NCBI GenBank assembly: GCA_016217875.1 | Contig: JACRFN010000042.1 | Location: forward strand, 1 to 49,002 | Direction of reading: 5' to 3' | Source: Candidatus Kerfeldbacteria bacterium | Lineage (GTDB): Bacteria > Patescibacteriota > Patescibacteriia > Veblenbacterales > UBA10138 | DNA: 49,002 nucleotides | Shown here: positions 4,031 to 27,650 of the stretch, in pieces | How positions within the stretch are numbered: position 1 is the first letter of the stretch | How the letters are laid out: every line of letters begins with the position of its first letter | Made by a program: the position numbers and the translations under genes | Notes under the pieces: generated by a model | What the model saw: only the letters and a program-made list of their open reading frames with translations | Told to the model about the DNA's origin: nothing | The model's database searches: none

Positions 4031-4813
4031 TTAACCTAATTCGATCTGCGCCACTAAAAAGCCTACCTTAAAAGGGGCTTCGTAAGAAAGGACTTTGGTG
4101 GTTATCTTACGCTGTCGCAGCCCAGAATATAAAACAGCGGCCGGAGCCCACAAACACTCCCGGCTGCGCCAACGTATGGCCGGATCAATATTGAGCAGGG
4201 TATCAAGCTGGTGGTTGGTAAGGGCGGCTTGAAAAAGCTTATCGAATAAAACAGACTCAGTGACAGCCTGGCCCAAATGATGGGCCAGGTCTCCGCTAGC
4301 CAGTACGACTACCCTGGCCTGAGCCCGTGCCCAAGCTTCTTCTAACAGCTGTGACAGTTTTCCTAAATCATCAAGTGACACTTGTGACGGCACTTGCAGG
4401 CAACAGACAGGCAGGCTATTTAAGGGCTTATCCAAATATGTGAGAGGGATGCTGAAAATGTAAGGCAACTTGACCGGGCTCAACATGGGCAGGGGAAATT
4501 TTGTTTCGCCGCCTTCTTTTAAGAGATAAGTAAAACCAACTGCACCAGTAAACTCACCCTGCGTTACTAAGTCGCCAAATTCGGCAAAGGAGGAAAAAAA
4601 TTTGGGGGCTTGGAGTAAATGATATCCCGCCGCCTCAATGGACTCAGGCTGGGCGGCGATTATTAAAATAACATCTGGTTGTAGGGCGTATAATTCAACC
4701 GCCAATTGCCCAATGGCCGCGCTCGTTTTGACAGCCTGCGCTCTGACCTCGGGCAATAACCCTGGTAAAAGAAGAGGGGAGTGTGGCAACAATCCTGCGC
4801 CGACAATGGGCAT
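4031..4813 (-). CDS. LigB/DODA-like (class III extradiol dioxygenase / Memo-like fold) protein, tentative
   Basis: N-terminal LLPHSPLLLPG and VVVLASGDLAHHLG blocks. The ORF track starts at 4852, but codons 1-13 lie inside the repeated element that is noncoding upstream of serS. The ATG at 4813 aligns with the serS ATG. Confidence 0.55.
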   Translation of the reverse strand: MPIVGAGLLPHSPLLLPGLLPEVRAQAVKTSAAIGQLAVELYALQPDVILIIAAQPESIEAAGYHLLQAPKFFSSFAEFGDLVTQGEFTGAVGFTYLLKEGGETKFPLPMLSPVKLPYIFSIPLTYLDKPLNSLPVCCLQVPSQVSLDDLGKLSQLLEEAWARAQARVVVLASGDLAHHLGQAVTESVLFDKLFQAALTNHQLDTLLNIDPAIRWRSRECLWAPAAVLYSGLRQRKITTKVLSYEAPFKVGFLVAQIELG

Positions 4814-4971
4814 ACCCAGTATATCAATCACAGTAGTAAAGCCGATGTCCATCGGCTCACTACCGGACTTCGCTTCGACCCATGTCTGGGGTAAGAAGCG
4901 GAACGAATTAGGTGAGTGGAGTCCCGCACACCAGGCTTGGCATTGTTGTGTGGGATTGTATTACTGGGCAT
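4812..4971 (-). repeat. MITE-like structured intergenic element, copy 1 (~160 nt, imperfect ~18-nt terminal inverted repeats)
   Basis: It aligns end to end with 27500-27650. The TIR pair is ATGCCCAGTAATACAATC versus ATACCCAGTATATCAATC (14 of 18 match). The internal hairpins are conserved. Confidence 0.75.
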
Positions 4972-4973
4972 AT

Positions 4974-6368
4974 TTAAAAACTGCTAGCAATAGAAGGCCC
5001 CAGCTCGTGAATAGCCAACGCGTCATCAGTCGTAGTCATTATGTTTTTGAGTTCATAACCTAATTCAGTCAGCGCCTGCTCAGAGGTGAACGGTCGCCGT
5101 TGCTTATTGGAAATAAGGTAAACGGTGGGCTCTGTCTTGGAACGAACCAGCTCGCCCTCTTTAAACAAGACTGGAGTGCTGGTGGAATACTGCTCCAATT
5201 GTTGGGCACTGGCTTTGGTAAATTTACGCTTACCAAAGTTGGAAATTAGAATCTCTTTTGACCATAGAGGATGCTTAACGCCATCCCGCACCCAATAAAT
5301 GCCGCCGGTTTTGCGGTCCTGCAGCAGGGTGCCGAGCGGATAAATACTCTTGACGGTAACAGGCTCAGCTTCGCCATAATCAGCCAAGTCCTCTTGGGCG
5401 ACTTTGATAATTTCTTCCGGGTTTACCCCCACGCGGCGTAAGGCCTCCCGCGAAGCAAAGCCCCTGACAGTATCACCCACCACTAAGTAAACGGTGCCCC
5501 GCGGCGTGCGCAAGAAAGAATAATTGGAAAATTTTATCAGCCGCCCTTCCGGATATTTCAAAAGTTCGGTTTTATTAATGGTCAATACCCGATCAAACGA
5601 ATCATAGAGCGACAAATACACCTGACGGCTGGCGAACTTACGACGCTGGCCGGCTTCTATCAGCCAGACTTCTTTCTCCCCCTCAACATTCAACAGCGTA
5701 CCGTCAGGATAACTGCGGGTGAAGTACTTGTTCCAAACTGTCCACAATACCTGGTTACCATGCAAATGCGGCGTATAAGTATAAACGATGGCGGTAGCAC
5801 GATTGGCCGGCACTACGGTCAGACCGTCCACCACCTTGGCCAGGCCTGGCCCGAAGCCGGAAATAGTCCGGCCGGAGGACTCAAGTTGCGGCAGATAATA
5901 AAGCCTAATGCGCTTGGCGGCGTTATATACCTGGTTGTAAAATCCTTTAAATTTCTGAATCACGGGGTCGTTGACATCACAGCCGTCACAAACCGCGTAA
6001 CCAGTGGCCCAATCATAGCTAGAGTTACTGGGCGATGGATCTTCAATCAGGCTTTGCTCCTTTTGCAACAAAGCCAGCAGGAATTTGGGGCTGATCTGAA
6101 AATCCTGGGCGGTGCTGTATATTATCTGGTCGGCCCGCAGAGAAGTAATCGGATCTTTATAAGAAGCTAAAGTACTGCCCTTGGCTAAAAGAAAAGCCTG
6201 GATTTGCGCCAGGTTCAAAGAATTATAATCGAGCAAATCGTCGTCAGACAGAATATAATTCTGATCAAACTCGGCCTGGGCCAAAGCGGGCAGGCTGAAA
6301 AAGGGCTGAGCCAGCAACATAGCCAGCACTACTAGCATAAAAAACAAGCGTTTAACACGCTGAGTCAT
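4974..6368 (-). CDS. Secreted protein, possibly cell-wall associated or a hydrolase-like protein (tentative)
   Basis: An N-terminal signal-like hydrophobic segment ending in ALAQA. The block ISPKFLLALLQKEQSLI resembles blocks seen in peptidoglycan-active proteins. No catalytic motif could be confirmed. Confidence 0.5.
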   Translation of the reverse strand: MTQRVKRLFFMLVVLAMLLAQPFFSLPALAQAEFDQNYILSDDDLLDYNSLNLAQIQAFLLAKGSTLASYKDPITSLRADQIIYSTAQDFQISPKFLLALLQKEQSLIEDPSPSNSSYDWATGYAVCDGCDVNDPVIQKFKGFYNQVYNAAKRIRLYYLPQLESSGRTISGFGPGLAKVVDGLTVVPANRATAIVYTYTPHLHGNQVLWTVWNKYFTRSYPDGTLLNVEGEKEVWLIEAGQRRKFASRQVYLSLYDSFDRVLTINKTELLKYPEGRLIKFSNYSFLRTPRGTVYLVVGDTVRGFASREALRRVGVNPEEIIKVAQEDLADYGEAEPVTVKSIYPLGTLLQDRKTGGIYWVRDGVKHPLWSKEILISNFGKRKFTKASAQQLEQYSTSTPVLFKEGELVRSKTEPTVYLISNKQRRPFTSEQALTELGYELKNIMTTTDDALAIHELGPSIASSF

Positions 6369-6437: not shown

Positions 6438-6465
6438 TTGACAAGATTTAACCCTGTGGTAAGTT
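6438..6465 (+). promoter_or_regulatory. Sigma-70-like promoter for the T-box leader
   Basis: TTGACA (6438-6443), a 16-nt spacer, then TAAGTT (6460-6465), about 30 nt upstream of Stem I. Confidence 0.5.
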
Positions 6466-6489
6466 GTTTCTAACAACCTTTACAGCGCC

Positions 6490-6832
6490 TAAAATCGTTG
6501 ACCAGGAAGAGTAGGCGAAGGTCGAGTCTAGCCCAGAGAGGGGAGGATAGTGCGATCTCCCTCTAGGCCGCTTCGCTGAATGGACCTGCGAGATGTAAGC
6601 CGAAATCATGCCGCTTCACGGCATGAGTGTAGTACTTGCCGGCCGTCCCCCGTAACCATGGGAAGCGAGGGTGTTGGTTGAACCACGTTCGACCAAAGCA
6701 CTCGCGAGTGGTCCGACGTAACGTCGGACAACAAAGGTGGTACCACGAAGGTTTGACCATACATTAAGGTTAAAGACCTCCGTCCTTTGATCAGCATGGC
6801 CTTGCCATGCTTTCTGAAGGACGGAGTTTTTT
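6490..6832 (+). promoter_or_regulatory. T-box riboswitch leader (transcription-termination type), specifier codon UGG (Trp)
   Basis: Stem I base CAGG (6503-6506) pairs with CCTG (6585-6588). The specifier loop has AAGAGTAG on the 5' side and T-GAA-TGG-A (6577-6584) on the 3' side. Also present: AGAGAG bulge (6535-6540), distal loop ATAGTGCGA (6547-6555), and Stem III (6711-6729). The T-box sequence AAAGGTGGTACCACG lies at 6733-6747 with a UGGUACC bulge. The antiterminator 3' strand (6777-6789) overlaps the terminator 5' strand. The terminator is CTCCGTCCTT/AAGGACGGAG followed by T6 (6778-6832). Confidence 0.85.
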
Positions 6833-6897
6833 GATAGCCCTTTAACAATTTAGAAAACAACAAACAACGAATTATGAAAACATAAAGGAGAGTCATC

Positions 6898-9462
6898 ATG
6901 AAAAAAAATGATGTATCACAACTAGTAACCCTTACGCTGGCTGAAGCCATTACAGAGAGTGCTAGCCGGATTGGAAGTAAGGTACTCAGGTTAGCTCAGC
7001 TCGCGAAACAAGGCTACGCGGTTCCGCCAGCTGTCATACTGCCCGCTGATACTGTGGCCACGCTCTGGCGTGGTGATAGGGTGGAAGTGCCAAATTGCGT
7101 TCTGGACGTCACTTGGCAGCGCTGTCAGAAGCTCCTCGGTCCCGGACCGCTGATAGTTAGGAGTAGTGGTCGTGAAGATGGTGAGACCTTATCCTTCGCT
7201 GGGCAGTTTGACTCGGTGCCAAACGTTGGCAATAAAGACGAACTACAGCGTGCACTAATAGCATGCATTTCATCATCTCGCTCTAGTGGTTCACGTCTCT
7301 ATAACGAGGCAGCTGGTACCATAGAGGTGGGTAATTCGTTTGCCGTTATGATTATGCCGCAGCGTCAGTGTGTTTTTGCCGGCATTATGTTTTCCCAGAT
7401 GCACTTGAACGGCGACGGTACGCGATTCGTCGTAGTACAGCTGGCGCGTGGGGCTAACTTTGGTCTCACGAGCGGTACGGAGGTCGGTGATATTGTTTAT
7501 CTGGAGCGAGAAACCGGGCGTGTAGTTTGGAGTATTCCCGATAATCGTACAGTGTCGGAGTGCAGCGACTCGAAACTTGCCGAACTCTACCGTCTAGCCT
7601 GCAATTTGGAAAGATTTTTCGGATTTGGGGTCGATGTGGAGTGGGGCACTTTACCCGATGGTACCGTGGAAATTTTCCAGACTCGTCCGATTACCACTAA
7701 GGGTGGGGCTAGTTCATCAGATTTGCGTTTAAGGGTGATTCTTCAGACGTTAAGCAAGATGAGTGATTCAGTTAATAAGCTGCACCAGTGTGGTGTTAAT
7801 GTCGGTGGTAACTACTGGAGCGACCAGAATATTGCCGAGCTCATTACTGATCACCCTTCTCGTATGGCTTTCGGGGTGTTTACCCACATATTTGCCCATG
7901 GCCAAGGCGCGATACGTACTGGCCGAAACCAAATGGGGTATGACATCGGACAGGAACTGGAGGAAGGGTTCTTTGAGCTCATTGGTGGTCGGCCACGTTG
8001 CAGTATTGCCCATGACGCTCTGACGTATCGTATTGATGGTATATCACTGGAAGACTACGCCGTAGGCTTTGTCGGCAGGTACTTAGCAAGTATTACTAAC
8101 GATATCCAGCTGGCTAACTACCCGGAAGTGGTCCTGTATGATCAGAATCCGTCGCTTCAGTCCCTAATTAAGGAGTTTGGCGAAGAGAAGGGGATGATTT
8201 ATGCGGCGTGCTATGATACATTCTTTACCAATATCCGTGACTTGGAAACGAGTATAGCAGAGGAATTCACTGGTTCGTTTGAGCCTGGGTTTCGGAGTTA
8301 CATGGATGAACGGCGTCGGGCGGTTGCCAGCTTAGTGGCAGGCTCCAACACGACCGATTTGGTGACGGTCAGTAAGGAAATTCTGGAGCATCTCCGAACG
8401 GTCAGCTGTGTTATGTTCGTGAAGGTCGCCCGACTCGGTTTCTTCGCTTATGCTCGTTTACGCCGTAGGCTTGAAGGCGCTTTTGGAGAAGCTGAAGGCC
8501 GCTCTCGACTCGATCAAATGACAGCGGGCTTAGAGGATGACGCCTCAATGCTCTTCAATGTACGTTTGGCAGATTTTCGGGACGGCAGAATAAGTCTAAG
8601 CCAACTACTTGATGAGTTCGGGCACTTGGGTCCAAATGAACTTGAGATTGCAAATCCGCGATACCGCAATCACGTCAATCTCATTGAACAGCTCGCGGCT
8701 AGCATCCAAGGTAATCCAGCAAGTGAACTCCGTCACCGTGCAAGTCAAGCTAGCCAGGTTACGCAGGAAACAGTAACGGCATTTGACGCCGAAGGTGCGC
8801 AAGAACTACAGCGCGATCTGGCTGTTGCGCGACGTTACTTGGCCTTACGGGAACGAGTTAAGTACTTCTATCTCATGGAGTATGACTGCTTCCGCCAGGT
8901 TTTGACCCACTTGACCGGGCTCCTCGGTATTGAAGAATACCTTATCTTTGAACTCGATCCGCGAGAGCTAAATCTTGTGGTAAGTGATCCCGCTGGGGCA
9001 ATTTCGCTCATGCGTGATCGTTACCAGGAGCGTACTCTGGTATACCATATGTATGTTCCACCAGTTCTTTCACAAGAGAACGTGGGGGCTATCGGTAGAG
9101 AGTCGTACGATCCGGAAGCCAAAGTGCTGATGGGTATCGGAGTGACTACACTGGTAACTACTGGCAGGGCCATTGTGGTGCTTGACCCGCAGGATACGGA
9201 TAAGATCTCACAGCTTGTGCCGGGATGTGTTCTAGTCACTAAGACAACTGATCCGACATGGGCTCCCATTATCGCAGCTGTTGGGGGCAATGGAGCATTG
9301 GTTACTGAAATTGGTGGACCGCTGGCTCACGGCGCTATTGTTGCTCGTGATTTGGGTATCGCCTGTGTGCAGAACGTTCCCGGCGTCACCAAGCGCTTCA
9401 GAACCGGAGACCTCATTCAGGTTGACGGTAAACACGGGACAGTAACTCTCGTGGAGGGGTAG
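6898..9462 (+). CDS. PEP-utilizing-family phosphotransferase with rifampin-phosphotransferase-like architecture (N-terminal ATP-grasp, large central domain, C-terminal swivel-His domain)
   Basis: RBS AAGGAG lies 7 nt upstream. The N-terminal block is GSKVLRLAQLAKQGYAVPP..RSSGREDGETLSFAGQFDSV (PPDK_N type). The C-terminal block is TTDPTWAPII..EIGGPLAHGAIVARDLGIACV (mobile phospho-His domain). At 854 aa it has no C-terminal PEP/pyruvate TIM-barrel domain. Confidence 0.8.
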   Translation: MKKNDVSQLVTLTLAEAITESASRIGSKVLRLAQLAKQGYAVPPAVILPADTVATLWRGDRVEVPNCVLDVTWQRCQKLLGPGPLIVRSSGREDGETLSFAGQFDSVPNVGNKDELQRALIACISSSRSSGSRLYNEAAGTIEVGNSFAVMIMPQRQCVFAGIMFSQMHLNGDGTRFVVVQLARGANFGLTSGTEVGDIVYLERETGRVVWSIPDNRTVSECSDSKLAELYRLACNLERFFGFGVDVEWGTLPDGTVEIFQTRPITTKGGASSSDLRLRVILQTLSKMSDSVNKLHQCGVNVGGNYWSDQNIAELITDHPSRMAFGVFTHIFAHGQGAIRTGRNQMGYDIGQELEEGFFELIGGRPRCSIAHDALTYRIDGISLEDYAVGFVGRYLASITNDIQLANYPEVVLYDQNPSLQSLIKEFGEEKGMIYAACYDTFFTNIRDLETSIAEEFTGSFEPGFRSYMDERRRAVASLVAGSNTTDLVTVSKEILEHLRTVSCVMFVKVARLGFFAYARLRRRLEGAFGEAEGRSRLDQMTAGLEDDASMLFNVRLADFRDGRISLSQLLDEFGHLGPNELEIANPRYRNHVNLIEQLAASIQGNPASELRHRASQASQVTQETVTAFDAEGAQELQRDLAVARRYLALRERVKYFYLMEYDCFRQVLTHLTGLLGIEEYLIFELDPRELNLVVSDPAGAISLMRDRYQERTLVYHMYVPPVLSQENVGAIGRESYDPEAKVLMGIGVTTLVTTGRAIVVLDPQDTDKISQLVPGCVLVTKTTDPTWAPIIAAVGGNGALVTEIGGPLAHGAIVARDLGIACVQNVPGVTKRFRTGDLIQVDGKHGTVTLVEG

Positions 9463-9501
9463 CTATGGCGTGGTAGCTTAGTACAAAAAGAATAACATCA
9501 A

Positions 9502-9535
9502 AGAGGGAGTTATAACACATAGCCCCCTCTTTTTT
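9502..9535 (+). terminator. Intrinsic terminator after the 854-aa gene
   Basis: Stem AGAGGG (9502-9507) pairs with CCCTCT (9525-9530), followed by TTTTT. Confidence 0.55.
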
Positions 9536-9588
9536 AATATGTTGTTTTTTGATACCATTGACATAACATACCTACCCAAAAGCATCAT

Positions 9589-10275
9589 ATGTCCGACCCT
9601 GAGTTTTTCTTCATTCGACACGGCCAGCTTGTTCCGCCGTATCTCGATCACTTGAAAATGGACTACCAAACGTTGGTAGAGCTCTCTACCGGCGTACTTG
9701 ACCCTGGCATAAATCAGAATGCATCTGAACTCTTTTCCCGTCAGGCTGCTGAGGTTGATTTCTCTAGCGTGCGGCATGTTTACTACAATAGTTCCGGTAT
9801 ATCTTCACGGCGATCCCTGGAGTCTGCTCGCTGTATTATCGCTAACCTGCGGCAGCTGTCCGGGGGTGCCATTACCCTTCGTGGTTTGCCTGAAATTCGG
9901 GAAGTACGTTTTGATGTCAGCGGGTTACTAAGTGAGTATGAGTTTAGCCAGCGTGGCATGGCCGCCATACGGGCCGCGCTCTACCTGGCTGCATTTCAGG
10001 GTGGAGCCGCGGAGCCTACAGCCGAAATAGCAAAGCGCATCGGTGTTCTTCATAAGGTTGTGGAGGAGCATGCCAGCAAAGGGGAGAGTGTCTTATTCGT
10101 AACACATGACTTTTTTATGCGGTTCCTTGAGGTATACATAACGAGAGCGGAGCGCCTAAAGGAGGTTCATATAACCGACTTGGACAACACTTCACTAAAT
10201 TATTATTTCGGCGGTTTTAGGAGCGATGGTTTATTGTGGACGTTGATGAGGTGGGGCGATCCGGTAAATCACTGA
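9589..10275 (+). CDS. Histidine phosphatase superfamily (phosphoglycerate-mutase-like) protein
   Basis: An N-terminal FFFIRHGQ (RHG catalytic motif) and a later VTHDFF (second His). Confidence 0.7.
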   Translation: MSDPEFFFIRHGQLVPPYLDHLKMDYQTLVELSTGVLDPGINQNASELFSRQAAEVDFSSVRHVYYNSSGISSRRSLESARCIIANLRQLSGGAITLRGLPEIREVRFDVSGLLSEYEFSQRGMAAIRAALYLAAFQGGAAEPTAEIAKRIGVLHKVVEEHASKGESVLFVTHDFFMRFLEVYITRAERLKEVHITDLDNTSLNYYFGGFRSDGLLWTLMRWGDPVNH

Positions 10276-10579
10276 TAAAACAGAATCTAACCATCGCCGC
10301 CCTATTTGGGGGCGTAACAACAAACGTTAGTCTCAGCAAAATCGAGATTGGCACTTTTTCTTTTTGGTTTGATGAATCATTTTAGCCATTAAGCCTAGCT
10401 GTTCCAGCAATTTGACAAAAACTTCCATACTTCCCAGTATCAAAGTTTTTTCTATTTTTAAAGAAGAGATAATTTTAAAGCATTGGTTCTTGAGAACAAA
10501 AACTCTGTAGAACCAACGCCTTTTTCTTTTGTTTACGGCCTAGGAATAACCAGCGAAAAATGGTAAAATTAACTGTGTT

Positions 10580-11590
10580 ATGCGCCTGTTTATCGGTTTG
10601 GAACTGCCACCTGCCCTGCGCCTGGAGATTGAGCGTTTAAAAACCTCGTTTGAGTCCTTGGGTTATATCCGCGGCAAGTGGGTGGAGGTTTATAATCTTC
10701 ATCTGACTCTGGGGTTTTTGGGCGAGGTGGGGGAGGAGCTATTGACTAAACTTACATACTCTTTGGAGCAGGTAGCGGCCACTGTTCCGGCCTTTAAAAC
10801 AAAGCTTACGGGACTCGTTGGCATACCGCCGCGCCAGCCGCGTATCCTGGCTTTAGCCTCTGACGCTAAAGGGTCGTTCTACGCCCTGCAACAAAAACTT
10901 ACCTTGGCCTGCTCTAAGGTAGGTCTAAACTTGTCAGCCAAAGCGACACACCTGACTTTGGTGAGACTAAAGGTCCCGCTATACAAAATGCCGCCTTCGG
11001 CCTGGAAACCAGCTGACCTCTTTGTGGCCCAATTTAGTCTTATGCAAAGTACTTTAACCCCAAAAGGGCCTGTTTATAAGCCCCTTAGAGCCTTTAAATT
11101 GGCCCTAGGAGCCCAGCAGACTAAATTTCGGCCTAGTGTAGCTGTTTGCGTAATAAATCCCCAAAATGAGGTTATTTTAATCTGGCGCAGTGAAAACCGC
11201 CCCCATGACCTGGGCTTCCCCCAAGGCGGCATTAACCCTGGTGAAACTGCCGAGGCAGCAGCCAAACGTGAACTTAAAGAAGAGCTTGGTCTGGAGCAAG
11301 TTACGGTGCTTGGGGTACGGGATCGCATTTACACTTACCGTTGGCCCAAGGGTTTGATCAAATATGGCAAGGATGCCGACAAACGCGGCTACTTGGGCCA
11401 GGAACAAAGCCTGGTTATTGTCCGCCTGAAAGAACTTAGGCCTGAGCTTAAACCCGACCCGCTGGAAGCCGCTGTCGTACGTTGGGTGCCGCTAGACAAA
11501 TTGCTGGCCAGCTTAAAACCCAAGCGCCGAGCCTTAGGACGTTTAGTTATGGTAGAATTAAACAAGCTAGGAATAAGCCCTAAACCTTAA
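10580..11590 (+). CDS. Fusion protein: 2H phosphoesterase (ThpR/LigT-like) N-terminal domain plus Nudix hydrolase C-terminal domain
   Basis: Two HxT motifs (NLHLTLGFLG and ATHLTLVRL) in the first ~180 aa. A Nudix box GGINPGETAEAAAKRELKEELGL lies in the C-terminal half. Confidence 0.75.
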   Translation: MRLFIGLELPPALRLEIERLKTSFESLGYIRGKWVEVYNLHLTLGFLGEVGEELLTKLTYSLEQVAATVPAFKTKLTGLVGIPPRQPRILALASDAKGSFYALQQKLTLACSKVGLNLSAKATHLTLVRLKVPLYKMPPSAWKPADLFVAQFSLMQSTLTPKGPVYKPLRAFKLALGAQQTKFRPSVAVCVINPQNEVILIWRSENRPHDLGFPQGGINPGETAEAAAKRELKEELGLEQVTVLGVRDRIYTYRWPKGLIKYGKDADKRGYLGQEQSLVIVRLKELRPELKPDPLEAAVVRWVPLDKLLASLKPKRRALGRLVMVELNKLGISPKP

Positions 11591-16291: not shown

Positions 16292-17983
16292 ATGAAGCAA
16301 AACTTTTTCCACTACGCCACCATACTGGCCCTCCTAGCCGCCGCTATCTCCGGCACCAACAACTTCTTAACCAAGGTAGCGGTAGGTGTGGTAGGCGATC
16401 CGATCGTATTTACCACACTCAAAAATGTATTGGTAGCTATGGCATTGGGGGGGCTCGTACTGGGGTTAAAAAAGTGGAAGGAAATCAAGGGTTTAAGTCG
16501 GCGTCAGTTGACACTACTCTGCGCCATCGGTGTGGTTGGAGGCTCAGTGCCGTTCGCGCTCTACTTTACCGGACTTGCGCAAACGAGCGCCATAAACGCC
16601 GGCCTTATACACAAAACACTTTTCTTGTGGGTGTTTTTGTTTGCTGTGCCTTGGCTTAAAGAAAAAGTAACCGCCTGGCAGTGGATGGGTGTGATAGTGC
16701 TGTTTGCTTCCAATCTTTTAGTCGGCGGTTTTGTTGGCTTCCGCTACAACACAGGCGAACTTATGATTCTGGCGGCTACAGTGCTGTGGGCTACAGAAAA
16801 CGTCATAGCCAAATCGGTGTTGCGCGACGTCTCCAGCACTACCGTGGCGGCCAGCCGTATGATACTAGGCTCTATCATACTGTCGCTCTTCATAGTGATG
16901 GGGGGCAGGGGAGTAGCGCTTTATAGTCTCACTCCTGAACAATGGGGCTGGACTATACTCACCAGCGCGCTGCTTTTGGGTTATGTCTTAAGTTGGTACG
17001 CCGCGCTGAAGCGCGCGCCGGCGACTTATGTGGCGGCTTTATTGGTGCCGGCCACTTTGGTCACCAACCTGCTGTCGGCGGTTTTTGTCATCCACGCTTT
17101 AACGCCGCTCCAGGCTGGGGCTGGGGCACTAACAGTATTGGGTGTAGCTTTGATTATCTGGTTCAGCCACCCGCGGGCAACAGTTACGCCGCCCAGGGTT
17201 CCGCCAGCGCACGGCTTGCGCCTGGACGACGAACCATCTGGCAGCCTTATAACTGATGGCATACTGCGCTGCGCCCGTTATGCTTTTGGGCCTAACCGGC
17301 TGCACTATTGCGGGCCGGACGCGAACCGCGAGGTTGCCTCTTACCTGGCGCACGGCGTCAGCGACCCGGGTCTGGCGCATCTTCTGAGCGATTTCCGCAC
17401 TATGTATCCGTACCTTAAACTTATTGCCGACTCAAACCACATCCCAGACCCGTTTGATGAACGCGTGGTTGAGGCTTACTGGATAGGCAATGAACTACTG
17501 GAGGCAGTCTCTAGGAGACAGCTTTATCGTCATCTGATTGACGAACACGGACTTAAGCGACGGCTTAGCCCTAAGTCTTTCCAGCGGGTAGCCAATGCCA
17601 TCGGCGGCGGGGCCGTGCCTCATCACTCTTTCCATGTGTTTGATATTTGGCGCCGCACCGGGCACCTGGACCGCGAGCACACCTTAGAGAGCCTGGACGA
17701 GTGCCGTATCAGTTGGGGCCGCGTGGTCTTAGTGGATGGCCAGACGCTAACCGTGGAACGAGAGCCCCTGGCTTACGCTCAAGGCAAACTATTCCTGGCT
17801 CCGCCCGTACCGCGTCGGTTAGTGCGCCGTCTTGAATCTGACTACGAAATTGAACAACTTAAAGTGGGTGACCTGGTGACCATCCACTGGGGTGTGCCCT
17901 GCGAAGTGGTTACACCGTCACAGATAAGCACACTTAAGGCCTACACTCTGCGTCACCTCAAATTCGCTAACCAAACACTGTGA
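16292..17983 (+). CDS. EamA/DMT-type 10-TM transporter domain fused to a ~260-aa soluble C-terminal domain of unknown function
   Basis: The first ~295 aa are repeated hydrophobic helices typical of DMT/EamA. The C-terminal part (ILRCARYAFGPNRLHYCGPD...VGDLVTIHWGVPCEV) is hydrophilic and I do not recognise it. The stop overlaps the next gene's GTG start (GTGA). Confidence 0.6.
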   Translation: MKQNFFHYATILALLAAAISGTNNFLTKVAVGVVGDPIVFTTLKNVLVAMALGGLVLGLKKWKEIKGLSRRQLTLLCAIGVVGGSVPFALYFTGLAQTSAINAGLIHKTLFLWVFLFAVPWLKEKVTAWQWMGVIVLFASNLLVGGFVGFRYNTGELMILAATVLWATENVIAKSVLRDVSSTTVAASRMILGSIILSLFIVMGGRGVALYSLTPEQWGWTILTSALLLGYVLSWYAALKRAPATYVAALLVPATLVTNLLSAVFVIHALTPLQAGAGALTVLGVALIIWFSHPRATVTPPRVPPAHGLRLDDEPSGSLITDGILRCARYAFGPNRLHYCGPDANREVASYLAHGVSDPGLAHLLSDFRTMYPYLKLIADSNHIPDPFDERVVEAYWIGNELLEAVSRRQLYRHLIDEHGLKRRLSPKSFQRVANAIGGGAVPHHSFHVFDIWRRTGHLDREHTLESLDECRISWGRVVLVDGQTLTVEREPLAYAQGKLFLAPPVPRRLVRRLESDYEIEQLKVGDLVTIHWGVPCEVVTPSQISTLKAYTLRHLKFANQTL

Positions 17984-18357
17984 CCGTTTTTGTTTTTGGC
18001 AATCCCGATCTGCCGTTTGATTCACTGCCGTTGCGTTTGCTGCCGGCCCTCAAGCGCGAATTTCCGAATGTTAATTTTGTAGTGCGCGACCCAAACGAAG
18101 ATTGGGAAGTACCAGCCGAACTTATACTTATTGATACGGTGGAAGGCATAAATAAAGTATCGGTCCTAACTGATTTGGATGAAGTAACAACTTCGCCGCA
18201 CCTAACTCTGCATGACTTTGATGTTGGTTTGCATCTTAAGTATTTAAAAAAACTCGGCAAGTTAAAGCAAGTTACGATCATCGGCCTGCCGCCGACACTT
18301 GCCGAAGCCGAAGCCTTACCGGCAGTGGTAACTAATCTCCGCGCCAATCTACCTTAA
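17980..18357 (+). CDS. [NiFe] hydrogenase maturation endopeptidase (HycI/HoxW-like)
   Basis: A 125-aa protein with VFGNPDLPFDS near the N-terminus, LILIDTV, and TLHDFD. These match the Asp/Asp/His metal-ligand spacing of hydrogenase maturation proteases. It is adjacent to the large subunit, which carries a cleavable C-terminal extension. Confidence 0.6.
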   Translation: MTVFVFGNPDLPFDSLPLRLLPALKREFPNVNFVVRDPNEDWEVPAELILIDTVEGINKVSVLTDLDEVTTSPHLTLHDFDVGLHLKYLKKLGKLKQVTIIGLPPTLAEAEALPAVVTNLRANLP

Positions 18358-19624
18358 GAAAGTGCGCGGCACAACTCATGCAAGGGTCATAAGCCCGAAT
18401 GAGCTTTTCCAGCTCAGCTGGGATTTTGTCTTTGGGCGTGGTGGGTAAAAGCTCATTCACCAGCCGCCAAATGTCCTCTTCAATGTTGATTTGATTCTGG
18501 CCGGTCGGCACCACAATTTCGCCTTGCTTGACCTTACCGTCCGCCGCCACCTCCACCTGATGATAAAGTGTGCCGCGCGGCGCCTCAATTACCCCCACGC
18601 CAACAGCCTCGCGCGGTTGAGCTGTTATCACTGGTTCGGCTGTAAATTTACTGCTGGTTAATATATCAATGGCATCGTCAATTGAATGCAGAATCTCAAT
18701 AGCCTGAGCCAGGTTATTTTGATAAATGTCAGTGGAGGGGAAAATGTCCAAAGTATTGCCCAAGTTCGCCTTGGTTTTGGGATGAAGTTTATTTTTGGCC
18801 AAATTAAGCCGAGCCAAGGCCCCAACCATAAAAGACCCGCCGTTGTGTTTGTAGGCCGAAGCTTGAGAATAGGGGAGTATGACGTGCTCCAAATGGTCAC
18901 GGTATTTTTCTTCTGGTATGCGCAAACCGTTACTGGTCTGGATGACGCCGTTCAAAAACCCGAAACGTTCCGGTACCAGCGCCATAAAATGGGTTTGCCG
19001 GTCAAAATGGAACGGCGTTTTTTTGAATATGTCAATCAAGCGCAATACTGCCGGCCGGGCCGCTTGTAATTTATCCGCCGCCTCGGCCATCTGCGCCTGG
19101 TCAGGTACGTGTAGAAAACCGCCGATAACCGGGTTAGTGGCGTGCACGCTACGCCCGGCCACCACCGTGGCCAAAAAATTACCGGCTGATTTAACTTCAA
19201 ATCCGTCATGAAGCAATTGGTGTTGCTCCGGATCCTGCTCGTCAAAATCAAGAAAGGCGTCCTTGTGGTAAATATCGGGCAGTGAAAACAAATAAAGGTG
19301 TAAAGCGTGGTCGCGTATCATCAAACCGTACATGGTAAGAGTGCGTAACAACATGGTTTGTTCTGACGGCGTTATGCCGAGCGCCCGCTCGCAAGCCTCA
19401 ATACTGCACAGCACATGGGCGTTGGAACAGGTGCCACAAATACGCGCCAGCAGCTGCGGCAAAGCTGCCAGCGGCTTACCTCGTATGGCCTGGGTGAAAA
19501 AACGCTTGAACTCCGTGATTTTGAAATGCACGTGCTCTACCTTGTTGTTTTTTACGCGCACCTCCAAACTGGCGGAACCTTCCACTTTGGTAATGCGGTC
19601 GAGTGTGAGGTCAAAAGTGTGCAT
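18332..19624 (-). CDS. [NiFe] hydrogenase large subunit (short, group-3-like)
   Basis: An N-terminal RICGTCSNAH (RxCGxC) and a C-terminal DPCMSCAAH, followed by a 9-aa extension FLKVDWRGD. Confidence 0.88.
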   Translation of the reverse strand: MHTFDLTLDRITKVEGSASLEVRVKNNKVEHVHFKITEFKRFFTQAIRGKPLAALPQLLARICGTCSNAHVLCSIEACERALGITPSEQTMLLRTLTMYGLMIRDHALHLYLFSLPDIYHKDAFLDFDEQDPEQHQLLHDGFEVKSAGNFLATVVAGRSVHATNPVIGGFLHVPDQAQMAEAADKLQAARPAVLRLIDIFKKTPFHFDRQTHFMALVPERFGFLNGVIQTSNGLRIPEEKYRDHLEHVILPYSQASAYKHNGGSFMVGALARLNLAKNKLHPKTKANLGNTLDIFPSTDIYQNNLAQAIEILHSIDDAIDILTSSKFTAEPVITAQPREAVGVGVIEAPRGTLYHQVEVAADGKVKQGEIVVPTGQNQINIEEDIWRLVNELLPTTPKDKIPAELEKLIRAYDPCMSCAAHFLKVDWRGD

Positions 19625-19662
19625 GAGAAAGATTCAAAAATCAAAAGTCAAAACTGGTTTTT

Positions 19663-19766
19663 GGTGCCGCCCTGCCGGAGTGTCAGCTAGCGCGGCGGCA
19701 CCCATGTGAAGGACTAGCTGACCCGTGCTGTGGTAGTTACGCATAGGGCCAGCCCTGAACATGGGT
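19663..19766. other. GC-rich element with three interleaved 8-9-bp complementary pairs (pseudoknot-capable) between the hydrogenase subunit genes
   Basis: GGTGCCGCC (19663-19671) pairs with GGCGGCACC (19694-19702). GTCAGCTAG (19682-19690) pairs with CTAGCTGAC (19714-19722). ACCCATGT (19700-19707) pairs with ACATGGGT (19759-19766). Confidence 0.6.
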
Positions 19767-19848
19767 AGCCGCGCCTGACACGGAGGCCGAGGCGGCGCTT
19801 CTTACGCCACTTCTTCTAAAGAAGTGGCAAAAAATTAGTAAACGATGT

Positions 19849-20373
19849 TCACTTAAGTAATTCGTTAACCAAAGAATTAACCGTATCCAAAAACACCTTA
19901 GGATCCATAGGGCAACCAGGCACGGCAGCATCAACCTTAACCACCTCAGACACCTTAAGCACTTTGGGTAGGGCGGCAAAGCGGGCCAGCAAAAATTCAA
20001 TGGCCTTGTTTTGTTCTTCATTAAAGGTGTTGCGTTGGGCCGCCGGCATGCCTTGCACGGCGCAAGCGCCTATGGCCACCAACTTTTTGGCCCTTTGCCT
20101 TATCTGGCGCAGCGTGGCCGCCTGCGTATCTGAAGCGATAGCGCCCTCAACAAAAGCGATGTCAAACTCATCAAACACGTTTTTAGACTTTAGAACCCGG
20201 ACATGGCGAAAATCAAACACCTCCTTCCACTCTTGCCAGTGGTCGTTCAAAAGTTCGGTAAAGACAATGGTACTATCCTCACAGCAGGAAAAAGAAAACC
20301 AACCAATTTTAAGCTTAGTTTTGGCCTTAACTGATTTGGTCTTCAATTTGGGCATAAGAATATTAAACCACAA
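19849..20373 (-). CDS. [NiFe] hydrogenase small subunit (group-3-like, short)
   Basis: Cysteine blocks FSCCEDS, GACAVQG and VPGCP, a 174-aa size, and a position upstream of the large subunit. Confidence 0.8.
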   Translation of the reverse strand: MWFNILMPKLKTKSVKAKTKLKIGWFSFSCCEDSTIVFTELLNDHWQEWKEVFDFRHVRVLKSKNVFDEFDIAFVEGAIASDTQAATLRQIRQRAKKLVAIGACAVQGMPAAQRNTFNEEQNKAIEFLLARFAALPKVLKVSEVVKVDAAVPGCPMDPKVFLDTVNSLVNELLK

Positions 20374-21487: not shown

Positions 21488-22468
21488 TTATTCTCTCAAT
21501 GGATGAAATTTATGATGGGTGGTTTCAGCGTATTTATCAGAAGCATGGACATAACGTGTGGTGGTATCAAGCGACTCGTGGCCCAAGAGCACCTGAATGG
21601 CCGCGGGATTAGCGCCTGATTCGGCTAAATATGTGGCAAAACCGTGCCGCAGGCTGTGAGCCGAAGTGGGCACATTGATGCGCAGCTGTTCACGATAACA
21701 CTTAATTTTCATTTGCAAATAATTAGTGGAAATGCGGCTAGTTGCCTTGCTCGCGTTCTCACCGCGGTAGGGGATAAATAAAGCCGGGTGATCATCTCGT
21801 CTGGTTTTTAAATAAGCATCAATATGCCTAATGGACCGCGGCGTCAAATAGACAAAACGTTCCTTTTTACCCTTGCCCATGACGAAGATGCGTCCGCTAT
21901 CATCAATCTGGCTTCGTTTCAGGCTGACTAGTTCTGAAATACGCAAACCAGTGGCGAACAGCACCTCCAGTATAGCCCGGTTGCGTAAAGCCACCTGTTT
22001 ATTTTTCTCTATAGCTGTGGGTGATTCAATTAGCCTCACCAATTCTGATAGCTCAGCCACCTGAGGATGTTTACGTTCGTTCTTCACCAGCTTCACTGCC
22101 TCGGGGGGTAGGGGAGTAGGATAATCCATGGCAATCAAGTAACGCAAATAGGCCCTCAGGCTTGAAAGCATACGATTAAGAGAATAACTCTTAAGTCTTT
22201 TGTTAGCTGGAGCGTTCTGACAAGTGCGACGGTCGCGTGAAGCAAGGTAGGCCTTATAGCGCTCAATGGTCTTCTTATCCACAGAGGAAGTAGTGAGGCC
22301 CAATTCGTTTAAAAATTCCTCAAACACCTTAAGGTCACGCTCGTAATTATAAACTGTCTCGGGTGAGTAATTATTTGTCTGCAGTGAAAGAAGCCAATCT
22401 TCTAAATATGGCAATGGCTCAGCTTGTTGGCGGGGGGAGAGGGCTTTAGTCCGAACTTGTTTTTTCAT
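21488..22468 (-). CDS. Tyrosine recombinase (XerC/XerD family)
   Basis: GLRISEL, HSLRHGFATYL and LGHESLDTTTRYVH (R..HxxR..Y catalytic residues), plus an N-terminal SAM-like core-binding domain. Confidence 0.85.
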   Translation of the reverse strand: MKKQVRTKALSPRQQAEPLPYLEDWLLSLQTNNYSPETVYNYERDLKVFEEFLNELGLTTSSVDKKTIERYKAYLASRDRRTCQNAPANKRLKSYSLNRMLSSLRAYLRYLIAMDYPTPLPPEAVKLVKNERKHPQVAELSELVRLIESPTAIEKNKQVALRNRAILEVLFATGLRISELVSLKRSQIDDSGRIFVMGKGKKERFVYLTPRSIRHIDAYLKTRRDDHPALFIPYRGENASKATSRISTNYLQMKIKCYREQLRINVPTSAHSLRHGFATYLAESGANPAAIQVLLGHESLDTTTRYVHASDKYAETTHHKFHPLRE

Positions 22469-25111: not shown

Positions 25112-26266
25112 TTACACCAAGACTCGCGGTAATAAAGGATTGATTCTGGTGACTATCTCATAATTAATCGTACCAGTTTTATCGGCCATGTCATCAGCCG
25201 TCAGCTCTCCCCTACCCTGTTTACCTATTAACACCACCTCGTCGCCTACTTTAACATTTTTTAAACCCGTCACATCGGCCATAAAGATATTCATACAAAT
25301 TCTACCAATAACAGGGCAAAGTGTCCCGTGGATTAACACCCGGCCCTTATTGGAAAGAGCACGATCATAACCATCCCAATAGCCCACTGGCATAACAGCC
25401 ATACGCGTAGCCCGCCCCGTGACATAAGTGCGATCATAGCCCACGGCTGTACCAGGGGGCAGGTCTTGCACTTCAATAATCTGGGTTTTCCAAGTCAACG
25501 ACGGCTGCAGTCTAAACCTGTGATGCCGCGCCTGAACAAACTGTCGATTGGCTGCCGAAGGCCACAGGCCATAAAGCCCGATGCCCAGCCGCACTAGAGA
25601 CAGACGCGCTTCAGGCGCGGCGGTTGAGGCGGCAGTGCCGGCTATATGCTGCAGAGTGTCTTGAGGCACCAGCCCACCCGCCTGCTTGATGAACTTTTTA
25701 TAAGTATTGAGCTGTTGTTTAAGAAAAGTCTGGTCACGCGACTCGGCGGTGGCAAAATGAGAGGCAATGCCCTCTAGTTTAAGATAAGGTGAGCGCAAGA
25801 TGTACCTTAGGTAAGACTTAGCCTTATCTATCGAGACACCCAAACGAGCCATGCCTGTTTCAAGTTTCAAATGCACCCGCGCACAGGTTGCGACCTGTTG
25901 GGCTACTTGAGCCAAAGTCTTTAAAGCCTTAAGCTCATATACCATAAACGAAACATTGTGTTTTATCCCGTCTTTAAGCTCTGGCTGGCTTAAGGGATGA
26001 TAATAGCTCAACACCAAAATGGGTAACCTAATGCCCGCCTGACGCAAAGCCATAGCCTCGCGCAAACTGGCTACACCCAGCCAATCAACCTGGCCGGACT
26101 TTTGGGCCACCCGAGCTACCAGCTCTAGGCCATGACCGTAAGCATTGGACTTCACCACCGCAAGCAGTTTAGTGTCAGAACCCAATAAACGACGGTGGGC
26201 ACGGATGTTTGACACCAGTGCCCGCTCAGAAATCTCTACCCAGGAATGCGCTAAGGCCTGCTTCAT
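25112..26266 (-). CDS. alr: Alanine racemase
   Basis: AVVKSNAYGHG (PLP-lysine motif), 384 aa, and a 4-nt overlap with serS. Confidence 0.9.
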   Translation of the reverse strand: MKQALAHSWVEISERALVSNIRAHRRLLGSDTKLLAVVKSNAYGHGLELVARVAQKSGQVDWLGVASLREAMALRQAGIRLPILVLSYYHPLSQPELKDGIKHNVSFMVYELKALKTLAQVAQQVATCARVHLKLETGMARLGVSIDKAKSYLRYILRSPYLKLEGIASHFATAESRDQTFLKQQLNTYKKFIKQAGGLVPQDTLQHIAGTAASTAAPEARLSLVRLGIGLYGLWPSAANRQFVQARHHRFRLQPSLTWKTQIIEVQDLPPGTAVGYDRTYVTGRATRMAVMPVGYWDGYDRALSNKGRVLIHGTLCPVIGRICMNIFMADVTGLKNVKVGDEVVLIGKQGRGELTADDMADKTGTINYEIVTRINPLLPRVLV

Positions 26267-27501: not shown

Positions 27502-27650
27502 AGCCCAGTATATCAATCCCAGTAGTAGAACCCTTGGTTCACTACAGGACTTCGCTTCGCCATGTGATTAGGAGAAGCGGAACGAATTAAGTGAGTGGAG
27601 TCCCGTACACAATGCCTGGCATTGTTGTACGGGGTTGTATTACTGGGCAT
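27500..27650 (-). repeat. MITE-like structured intergenic element, copy 2 (151 nt)
   Basis: It aligns with 4812-4971 over its whole length. The TIRs lie at 27633-27650 and 27500-27518. The 5' end overlaps the rdgB stop codon, and the 3' end supplies the AT of the serS ATG. Confidence 0.75.

Follow-up and report, generated by a model that had tools for sequence, protein, structure and literature searches.

A 49,002-nt stretch of contig JACRFN010000042.1 from a Candidatus Kerfeldbacteria bacterium, a member of the Candidate Phyla Radiation (CPR, or Patescibacteria), encodes a dikinase of the rifampin phosphotransferase (RPH) type followed by a histidine phosphatase, and the two genes are predicted to form a tryptophan-starvation operon. 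A T-box leader lies upstream of the dikinase gene in this stretch (hereafter the window), and comparison with related loci indicates that the gene pair, found in scattered CPR lineages, is always tied to tryptophan, whether through a T-box with a UGG specifier, a leader-peptide attenuator with WW or W codons, or an adjacent TrpR-family gene. The arrangement of the module is more than chance, because the same layout recurs in dozens of related loci, and the gene pair is probably part of a tryptophan-supply route not yet described. Both the enzyme scaffold and the riboswitch are already known; what is new is the dikinase clade, its obligate partnership with a phosphatase, its tryptophan-linked control by different devices, and the host group. 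In the Candidatus Kerfeldbacteria metagenome-assembled genome the dikinase is annotated as a hypothetical protein.

The window leader matches the Rfam T-box family (RF00230) with 91.4 bits (E 1.7e-20) against a gathering score of 93; the match was seen in an E-value scan only, and a scan at the gathering threshold reported no T-box in the window. Its specifier loop reads GAA-UGG-A (6578-6584), and the ligand is therefore predicted to be tRNA-Trp; the T-box sequence is AAAGGUGGUACCACG. Folding of positions 6725-6800 alone gives an antiterminator with a 7-nt UGGUACC bulge (-16.7 kcal/mol), and with the 3′ terminator strand added the terminator prevails (-45 kcal/mol), the two structures being mutually exclusive because one strand is common to both. 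By these features the leader appears to be a genuine T-box, slightly under the Rfam threshold here and above it in the orthologous leader of locus L008. The promoter-like sequence upstream (Table 1) was not listed by a consensus scan, having a weak match at -10; TTGACA-type boxes are also present 5′ of T-boxes in related loci. This is the single T-box in the window despite the presence of three aminoacyl-tRNA synthetase genes (gltX at 11781, serS at 26263-27516, and a class II D/K/N-type synthetase gene at 31130-32614), and it serves the dikinase operon, not the synthetase genes.

Related loci came from species-representative genomes (22 loci among 185,579 representatives, detection relying on two peptide patterns), from metagenomes (about 34 in-family loci), and from exact-protein look-ups; merging near-identical copies left 41 distinct loci, plus L110. 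Dikinase homologues of more than 35% identity form 65 clusters at 90%, every one from CPR genomes or metagenomes (range 35–75% identity). Loci L072-L108 (~30% identity, from the metagenome scan) proved to be ordinary high-GC RPH-type genes with uninformative neighbours.

Rfam E-value scans identified a T-box directly 5′ of the homologue in 10 genome loci at 38–99 bits (99.1 in L008, above the gathering score), and an nhmmer profile of our own built from those matches extended this to 22–24 distinct loci with T-boxes preceding the operon. The specifier is UGG in every related T-box that is readable, within GAA(AA)-UGG-A in leaders with a long Stem I, as in the window, and within GG(U/A)U-UGG-G followed by a closing helix in those with a short one. 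The T-box bulges are UGGC or UGGU, and the neighbouring tRNA-Trp genes with readable 3′ ends carry the matching G73. A very short Stem I, reduced to a simple hairpin and followed by GGUU-UGG-G, occurs in L003, L004, L007, L012, L021, L022, L034, L047, L053, L059, and L110-L112. Such short-Stem-I CPR T-boxes are without the AG bulge or distal platform and keep a strong intrinsic terminator; they score 38–50 bits in Rfam and so would escape standard annotation.

Eight loci without a T-box have, in its position 100–250 nt 5′ of the dikinase gene, a leader open reading frame (ORF) with WW or W-R followed by a terminator (Table 1). In L009 the leader stop codon lies in a segment that can pair with the terminator's 5′ strand, a classical attenuation layout. 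WW leaders are present in 4 of 24 regions 5′ of the dikinase as compared with 1 of 73 other intergenic regions (Fisher p = 0.013). In addition, a TrpR-family gene (PF01371, E 1e-18 to 1e-22) is located immediately 5′ in about seven loci; E. coli TrpR binds tryptophan, and the TrpR-family homologues here, if they do likewise, would sense free tryptophan and not charging. The dikinase gene thus appears to be controlled by two independent RNA devices reading Trp-tRNA charging, with TrpR-family genes adjoining some copies. The original prediction had called the genes a tRNA-Trp-responsive module, and this is strongly supported by the UGG T-boxes, here and elsewhere, by the eight Trp leaders, and by the TrpR, trpS, and tRNA-Trp genes nearby.

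The dikinase consists of an ATP-grasp domain (residues ~1-268), a helical acceptor domain (~272-740), and a swivel phospho-His domain (~741-854). Pfam recognises only PPDK_N (PF01326, E 6.4e-21) and the PEP-utilizers mobile domain (PF00391, residues 775-847, E 1.4e-17), and both strings quoted in the original prediction are present, RSSGREDGETLSFAGQFDSV at residues 88-107 and GGPLAHGAIVARDLGIACV at 806-824. By Pfam the swivel domain is C-terminal and not mid-chain as in phosphoenolpyruvate (PEP) synthase and pyruvate phosphate dikinase (PPDK), and neither Pfam nor the AlphaFold2 model shows a PEP/pyruvate TIM-barrel. The model, made with 64 homologues (pLDDT 90.4, pTM 0.79), has an α/β domain at the N-terminus, a long central part made up entirely of helices, and a small C-terminal domain rich in β-structure, and its top Foldseek match in the PDB over the full length is Listeria RPH (RPH-Lm; 5hv1, E 3.4e-32), so that the central region corresponds in predicted fold to the rifampin-binding domain. 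Further matches cover shared domains only and include the isolated RPH ATP-grasp domain, HpeI, PEP synthase, and PPDK, the alignments with the last two spanning ~330-480 columns of the ATP-grasp and swivel parts only. The architecture first proposed, a PPDK_N-type ATP-grasp with a C-terminal mobile His and no TIM-barrel, is therefore supported by Pfam, AlphaFold2, and Foldseek alike.

Sequence comparisons place the protein outside the RPH family proper. Listeria RPH is also its best match in a PDB sequence search (E 2e-25), with only residues 84-267 and 564-851 aligned; residues 268-563 do not align with RPH-Lm at the sequence level. No NCBIfam family scores above cutoff for either the dikinase or the phosphatase. 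The PEP-synthase-like, RPH, PigC, and RedH models give the dikinase 126–146 bits against cutoffs of 883–1350 (the best being 146 against 883), and the remaining models listed score lower; for the RPH equivalogs the values are 134.6 bits against 999 (NF041857) and 88.9 against 1700 (NF000283). The proposed match to the rifampin phosphotransferases thus stands for domain order and fold and fails for membership of the family itself. The protein nonetheless has the ATP-grasp, the swivel His, and the helical acceptor domain with Arg-Glu...Lys of RPH-type small-molecule dikinases. In L028 (2889-5486), L035, and L060 the dikinase is split into a 281-residue PPDK_N subunit and a 582-residue acceptor-plus-swivel subunit.

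In RPH-Lm, residues K22, R117, and T136 serve the ATP half-reaction, and R666-E667 together with K670 move the phosphate from H825 to rifampin (PMC4844700). By sequence alignment these correspond to K28, R88, S106, R651-E652, K655, and H811 of the dikinase, all of which are invariant in the CPR family except S106, the counterpart of T136. Because the RPH catalytic residues for both half-reactions are kept, the 854-residue protein should be a working dikinase. The most conserved segment is found neither in the ATP-grasp domain (majority fraction within the family 0.42) nor in the swivel domain (0.67); it spans residues 301-420 (0.74) and is the presumed acceptor-binding site. This segment holds SDQNIAELL and the invariant P366-R-C-S-I-x-H-D-A; its invariant charged or polar residues include R343, E353, R367, C368, S369, H372, D373, Y377, and R378, with N407, Y408, E410, and Q416 invariant within the CPR clade, and the R-C-S..H motif is missing from the non-CPR sister clade. 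The rifampin cleft of RPH, by comparison, is hydrophobic (PMC4844700). Since the acceptor segment is the best conserved and has invariant polar residues particular to the CPR clade, this points to an acceptor that would be one specific, small, and rather polar molecule, not a bulky antibiotic.

The phosphatase scores 27.2 bits with PF00300 (cutoff 21.7, E 3.6e-6). Its RHG motif is at residues 10-12, and R10, H11, R75, E105, and H173 are invariant in 14 orthologues, so with the conserved His_Phos set it is predicted to be catalytically complete. The model (pLDDT 92.1) has Foldseek matches to the generic His_Phos fold only; the best PDB match of its profile is weak and is the His_Phos-type phosphoserine phosphatase PspA (4ij5, E 1.4e-5), followed by CobC (5e-5), and in the structure comparison the 4ij5-type phosphoserine phosphatase ranks only 10th–24th among generic His_Phos matches. 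Between the two genes there is a terminator-like hairpin followed by T6 (Table 1), which a simple promoter/terminator scan missed owing to its long loop; a z-score of -4.1 applies to the entire intergenic stretch containing it (9455-9595), not to the hairpin alone. An RHG-motif phosphatase that is separately terminated, as had been proposed, is thus consistent with both the motif and the hairpin.

Among related loci with sequence available 3′ of the dikinase, essentially all have a phosphatase gene adjoining it, and the phosphatase is a genuine conserved partner. His_Phos_1 is encoded directly 3′ of the dikinase in 29 of the 41 distinct loci, and a low-molecular-weight protein tyrosine phosphatase (LMW-PTP) fills this slot in L011, L013, L024, and L048. 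An LMW-PTP gene is located 5′ of the dikinase inside the T-box operon in L017 and in L032, the nearest relative of the window (75% identity), and 3′ of the His_Phos gene in L053, and protein P0063 carries an LMWPc domain fused immediately C-terminal to its swivel domain. In the nearest non-CPR relatives (27–28% identity) the operon opens with a DSPc phosphatase gene. In this sister clade (L030 813-10625, L031 568-10649) the dikinase ends an operon that also encodes FAA_hydrolase, a class I/II aminotransferase, four Peptidase_U32 proteins, and an NMT1/THI5-like protein. Peptidase_U32 here we take to be the prephenate-dependent anaerobic hydroxylase family, and the operon looks like an undescribed anaerobic aromatic pathway in its predicted gene content; a literature search on U32 gave no identification of it.

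The neighbourhoods of the related loci are also linked to tryptophan. Tryptophanyl-tRNA synthetase (TrpRS) is encoded in 14 of the 41 loci (TIGR00233, 260–290 bits against a cutoff of 176.75), and 12 of the 19 tRNAs identified across loci are tRNA-Trp(CCA). The tRNA gene clusters with the module and trpS in L008 (8216-8291), L019 (4261-4334), L024 (13203-13279), L028 (10579-10655), L035, L038, L039, L048, L054, L057, and L060, the last with two adjacent ARAGORN calls. TrpB2 (NF009057, 738 bits) heads the same T-box operon as the dikinase in L039 and L110, and in L007 a trpB-trpA pair ends just 5′ of the T-box. The dikinase T-box operon also includes an AstE/AspA-family deacylase gene in L064, L050, and L039, and an EamA transporter gene in L049; other recurrent neighbours encode a group II decarboxylase dependent on pyridoxal phosphate (Pyridoxal_deC), M20 peptidases (C17), an Asp/Glu-type racemase, and prephenate dehydratase. 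Across Patescibacteria TrpB2 occurs very widely and is highly conserved, and in CPR genomes without the dikinase at that site a UGG T-box of the same kind precedes TrpB2 together with trpS. For this reason the CPR tryptophan regulon appears to be centred on TrpB2 (indole salvage) and TrpRS, with the dikinase–phosphatase pair present in a minority of genomes. The 49-kb window contains none of the other members of this tryptophan island (trpS, TrpR, LMW-PTP, TrpB2, deacylase, decarboxylase, or the EamA cluster).

Two further genes recur next to the module. A fusion of ~390-430 residues joins a chorismate-mutase-like N-terminus (CM_2, 26.6 bits, just below cutoff) to a class I S-adenosylmethionine-dependent methyltransferase, and is encoded in L004 (2968-4263), L019 (2987-4174), L038, L010, L021, and L059, often between trpS and the T-box. 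A cysteine-rich protein of ~203 residues without a Pfam match adjoins the module in L024 (8899-9510), L008 (8332-8922), and L040 (3237-), and is encoded directly 5′ of the T-box in L024.

In the mechanism we propose, uncharged tRNA-Trp would pair with the UGG specifier and the UGGU bulge and stabilise the antiterminator, and RNA polymerase would then continue through the dikinase gene and, to some extent at least, into the phosphatase gene. The ATP-grasp site would use ATP and His811 to yield AMP, Pi, and His811~P, from which the phosphate would pass, at R651/E652/K655, to an acceptor bound in the helical domain. Since scarcity of charged tRNA-Trp turns the gene on, its product would be expected to increase tryptophan charging. 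On balance we lean towards the view that the module has an accessory role in the CPR tryptophan-salvage regulon of TrpB2 and TrpRS, where it would provide or activate a substrate from which tryptophan is formed and so raise charged tRNA-Trp. TrpB2 makes tryptophan from indole and either O-phosphoserine or serine, and the TrpB2 enzymes so far characterised reportedly (2014 work by Busch et al.) depend on O-phosphoserine as the preferred co-substrate. The leading specific model, put forward tentatively and with odds rather against it, is accordingly that the dikinase phosphorylates L-serine to O-phospho-L-serine for TrpB2, and that the phosphatase would control or clear the phospho-intermediate; the location of TrpB2 directly 5′ of the dikinase in two operons and the polar pocket residues favour it. 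More broadly, the pair could be a new tRNA-Trp-starvation route, which would be either a 'serine, water dikinase' feeding indole salvage by TrpB2 or an ATP-driven relay through the 'phosphatase' that resembles the phosphotransferase system (PTS), although we regard this as doubtful.

Several points weigh against this interpretation. The substrate assignment is an inference from genomic context, and a strictly conserved and sometimes fused phosphatase would reverse a simple conversion of serine to O-phosphoserine. TrpB2 adjoins the dikinase in just 2 of ~42 loci and is far more widespread in CPR than the dikinase; the likeness of the phosphatase to phosphoserine phosphatase is weak and the structure comparison recovers the generic fold only. 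In the window the intergenic hairpin and T run leave co-transcription of the two genes unproven. T-boxes and attenuators sense charging and so would respond to a TrpRS inhibitor too. LMW-PTP enzymes classically favour aryl over alkyl phosphates. Finally, the characterised members of the dikinase family act on aromatic hydroxyls or rifamycins (PMC12167813, PMC4844700).

An alternative that is nearly equal to the O-phosphoserine model, and likewise rather improbable taken alone, is that phosphate is a transient handle: the dikinase would phosphorylate a membrane-permeant aromatic or indolic precursor at a hydroxyl, enol, or N-H and so trap or activate it, and once the compound had been converted the phosphatase would remove the phosphate to yield tryptophan or its immediate precursor. 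The LMW-PTP and DSPc families favour aryl phosphates, and both are among the partners seen here, DSPc in the sister clade. Genes of aromatic amino-acid metabolism are nearby (Pyridoxal_deC, prephenate dehydratase, and the CM_2-methyltransferase fusion), HpeI is among the top Foldseek matches, and the two-component dikinases of L028, L035, and L060 are split as are HpeHI and PpsAB. The relatives RPH, HpeHI, CreHI, and PpsAB all phosphorylate aromatic hydroxyls; for HpeHI a scavenging of diffusible phenolics by trapping has been proposed by its authors (PMC12167813), and products of the Hpe pathway are 'carboxylated, dephosphorylated'. Against such a handle, no concrete compound gives tryptophan with a kinase and a phosphatase alone, no intermediate enzyme is conserved between phosphorylation and dephosphorylation, and most of the invariant residues in the acceptor domain carry a charge or are polar, whereas the pocket that binds rifampin in RPH is hydrophobic.

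The original prediction offered two roles. In the first, which we widen to include tryptophan antimetabolites, the dikinase would phosphorylate and inactivate a natural inhibitor of Trp charging, and the inhibitor itself would switch the gene on by raising uncharged tRNA-Trp. RPH architecture with its antibiotic-kinase precedent, RNA devices that sense charging and not free tryptophan, the tight synteny with trpS and tRNA-Trp, and a sporadic distribution befitting an accessory resistance gene (22 loci in 185,579 species genomes) all speak for it. We nevertheless consider it improbable: an obligate and sometimes fused phosphatase would reactivate the inhibitor, the TrpR-family genes beside about seven loci would sense free tryptophan if they bind it as E. 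coli TrpR does, and TrpB2, a deacylase, or a transporter in the same operon points to supply. Moreover, the acceptor pocket is polar and extremely conserved over very divergent hosts, and the protein scores far under every RPH model. The second role, in which the enzyme would act on a metabolite related to Trp and the phosphatase would be a counter-activity or processing activity, lies nearer to what the evidence favours, with dephosphorylation as a processing step.

Of similarly low probability is a relay or switch, in which the partner accepts the phosphate of His811~P in a PTS-like manner (as phospho-His in His_Phos and as phospho-Cys in LMW-PTP-like proteins), or in which kinase and phosphatase reversibly modify a Trp-charging protein or tRNA. 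Three unrelated phosphatase families accompany the dikinase; all form a covalent phospho-enzyme and all include protein phosphatases. Both the fusion of LMWPc right after the swivel domain in P0063 and the presence of both phosphatase types in one operon (L032, L017, and L053) fit this scheme, as does segment 301-420, which is conserved above the catalytic domains as a protein-docking surface would be. Enzyme I uses the same swivel domain to phosphorylate HPr, and the EIIB-cellobiose fold resembles LMW-PTP. A phospho-carrier reading of the partner would, speculatively, account for the fusion, for two 'phosphatases' per operon, and for the conserved surface of the acceptor domain. However, all characterised RPH-type enzymes act on small molecules, TrpRS is the only potential target protein conserved nearby, and nothing in the support for a relay is direct.

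An ordinary PEP synthase or PPDK with an unannotated domain, or a bona fide rifamycin-resistance RPH, with the T-box link incidental, is highly improbable: NCBIfam matches do include PEP synthase and RPH models and one database source labels a homologue 'pyruvate, water dikinase', but the scores are far below cutoffs (146 against 883, 135 against 999, and, for PEP synthase TIGR01418, 95.5 bits against 739.75), the TIM-barrel is missing from both Pfam results and the model, central residues 268-563 do not align to RPH in sequence, and the tryptophan-linked control is conserved in dozens of loci. A PEP synthase that had merely lost annotation of its C-terminal domain, a case named at the outset as one that would refute the prediction, is thereby disfavoured. 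Also set aside were a vitamin B6 kinase/phosphatase, shikimate kinase, PEP recycling, RNA end-healing, and McsB/YwlE-like degradation tagging, each of which fits one feature and none of which fits tryptophan control and an obligate phosphatase together.

Table 1. Positions of the module features in the window, followed by the leader peptides of related loci that have no T-box.
Feature	Coordinates	Strand	Basis
Promoter-like TTGACA, 16-nt spacer ending TGG, TAAGTT	6438..6465	+	by eye; candidate
T-box leader: Stem I with specifier loop, Stem II/IIA-B region, T-box sequence, antiterminator	6489..6790	+	Rfam RF00230
Specifier codon UGG (Trp)	6581..6583	+	read in Rfam alignment and sequence
T-box bulge UGGU, would pair with 3′ (G73)CCA of uncharged tRNA-Trp	6738..6741	+	sequence reading
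Intrinsic terminator CUCCGUCCUU ... AAGGACGGAG then U6; 5′ strand common to antiterminator	6778..6832	+	sequence, folding
Ribosome-binding site AAGGAG, 7 nt 5′ of ATG	6885..6890	+	read directly
RPH-type small-molecule dikinase, 854 aa	6898..9462	+	ORF list, Pfam, NCBIfam, PDB alignment, AlphaFold2, Foldseek
Codons of residues 301-420, most conserved dikinase segment, presumed acceptor-binding site	7798..8157	+	A1 alignment
Codons of R651-E652...K655, second phosphotransfer residues	8848..8862	+	RPH-Lm alignment; invariant in CPR-clade alignment A1; PMC4844700
Codon of His811, phosphate-carrying histidine (RPH-Lm His825)	9328..9330	+	alignment; invariant in 64 sequences
Terminator-like hairpin (AGAGGGAG ... 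CCCCCUCU) then T6, 3′ of dikinase stop; may be a partial terminator	~9501..9536	+	read and folded by hand
His_Phos_1 histidine phosphatase, 228 aa	9589..10275	+	Pfam, alignment, AlphaFold model
Possible operon-end terminator, UUGGUUC ... GAACCAA then U-rich tail	10483..10529	+	by eye; putative
Trp leader peptide L005, ..SVSWWSAFDGQ-stop			
Trp leader peptide L009, ..SMSWWAKLFLV-stop			
Trp leader peptide L011, ..NSTWWALHSRKVLG-stop			
Trp leader peptide L016, ..GKSWWGIELF..			
Trp leader peptide L046, ..TIGWWSPLS..			
Trp leader peptide L048, ..NITWWSLKGLLLG-stop			
Trp leader peptide L013, ..FGWRALLL..			
Trp leader peptide L015, ..KLNWRELHRFR-stop			

Among known systems, RPH-Lm (5hv1, 5fbs; NF041857) shares with the dikinase the three-domain order, the full-length fold, and the catalytic residues of both half-reactions, but structural alignment gives ~17% identity and the CPR protein has its own invariant polar P-R-C-S-I-x-H-D motif, tryptophan control, and an obligate phosphatase. 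PigC, RedH, and HapC share this domain architecture, and the protein reaches 126–143 bits with their NCBIfam models, level with the RPH model; these scores are far under the cutoffs of 1300–1350, however, there is no prodiginine cluster here, and PigC-type enzymes are without a phosphatase partner. In PigC-type enzymes phosphorylation makes oxygen a leaving group for C-C bond formation with a pyrrole, a chemistry that could be relevant to indole. Glucan water dikinase with SEX4/LSF2 is likewise a swivel-His dikinase with a dedicated phosphatase, and the sister clade has DSPc, but here carbohydrate-binding modules and a starch context are both absent, and this is an analogy only. HpeHI, CreHI, and PpsAB (PMC12167813) belong to the same superfamily, with HpeI a top structural match, some CPR members split likewise, and a phosphate that is later removed in the Hpe pathway; they begin phenolic catabolism in free-living bacteria, whereas the CPR module is linked to tryptophan starvation, has the phosphatase as its sole constant partner, and has no conserved carboxylase or oxidase.

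The regulatory devices have precedents as well. The Firmicutes T-box(Trp) operons share the riboswitch class, the UGG specifier, the terminator/antiterminator logic, and the presence of an EamA gene in an operon; examples are rtpA-ycbK of B. subtilis, trpS, and the trp operons, ycbK being of the EamA family. The CPR case differs in its host and in the regulated genes, which encode a dikinase and a phosphatase, and in many CPR copies Stem I is very short although the terminator is retained. Attenuation at E. coli trpL resembles the relatives without a T-box in the short leader ORF with tandem Trp codons and the overlapping antiterminator and terminator hairpins, but in CPR it is seen in related loci only, not in the window, and it controls a dikinase rather than a trp biosynthetic operon. 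In full-text searches, and within the literature searched, we found nothing on T-boxes in CPR/Patescibacteria, on a T-box with RPH or with PEP synthase, or on such a dikinase in a tryptophan regulon.

CPR bacteria are regarded as metabolically minimal symbionts that take amino acids from their hosts, and their response to shortage of a given amino acid has been little described. The comparisons here document T-box riboswitches in CPR genomes, including the form with a very short Stem I that retains its terminator. Three tryptophan-linked devices together with the ties to trpS, tRNA-Trp, and TrpB2 provide convergent functional evidence of a kind that is rare for an uncharacterised enzyme, and make the function directly testable with two small soluble proteins. 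The small-molecule dikinase family, with members in antibiotic resistance, pigment synthesis, and phenol catabolism, gains a polar-acceptor clade that has an obligate phosphatase partner and is linked to amino-acid metabolism. If true, a serine dikinase or a PTS-like relay would be both a new activity among RPH/PEP-utilizer enzymes and a new step of tryptophan acquisition in organisms thought to be without amino-acid biosynthesis.

A horizontal origin of the module from Firmicutes had been suggested, and this finds no support: the close homologues are all from CPR, the T-box is conserved within CPR, the flanking genes are housekeeping genes, and the composition does not deviate from the flanks (GC 0.50-0.52 in the module, ~0.49 in the window). 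The other genes of the window include fmt, def, priA, gltX, ddl, alr, serS, and dnaX, and genes for an M23 peptidase, an Nramp transporter, a class II aminoacyl-tRNA synthetase, and PBP2. Neither the dikinase nor the phosphatase matched a defence system in PADLOC.

Downstream of the phosphatase gene is a 304-nt gap (10276-10579), which was described from the start as gene-free and contains no ORF of at least 60 residues. The next gene (10580-11590, + strand) encodes an RNA 2′,3′-cyclic phosphodiesterase (LigT/2H; TIGR02258 96.9 bits, above cutoff) fused to an RNA pyrophosphohydrolase-like NUDIX domain; it has a weak PADLOC match to PDC-S07 and does not adjoin the module in other loci. Upstream of the module there is a divergent gene (4974-6368, - strand) for a 464-residue protein with a signal-peptide-like N-terminus and no Pfam or NCBIfam match, and a LigB-type dioxygenase-fold protein is encoded at 4031-4852. 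About 6 kb 3′ of the module (16292-17983, + strand) an EamA transporter is fused to DUF6390, and this protein is dissimilar to those encoded by the EamA genes inside (L049) or near (L008, L021, and L023) a Trp T-box operon. Elsewhere in the window are genes for NiFe-hydrogenase large-subunit-like and 20-kDa (Oxidored_q6) small-subunit-like proteins (18332-20373, - strand), a tyrosine integrase (21488-22468), and a type IV secretion system coupling-protein-like protein (45878-48550). At 30001-31000 the GC content falls to 0.347, compared with ~0.49 elsewhere, overlapping an ORF (29967-31088, - strand) for a 372-residue protein with no Pfam match.

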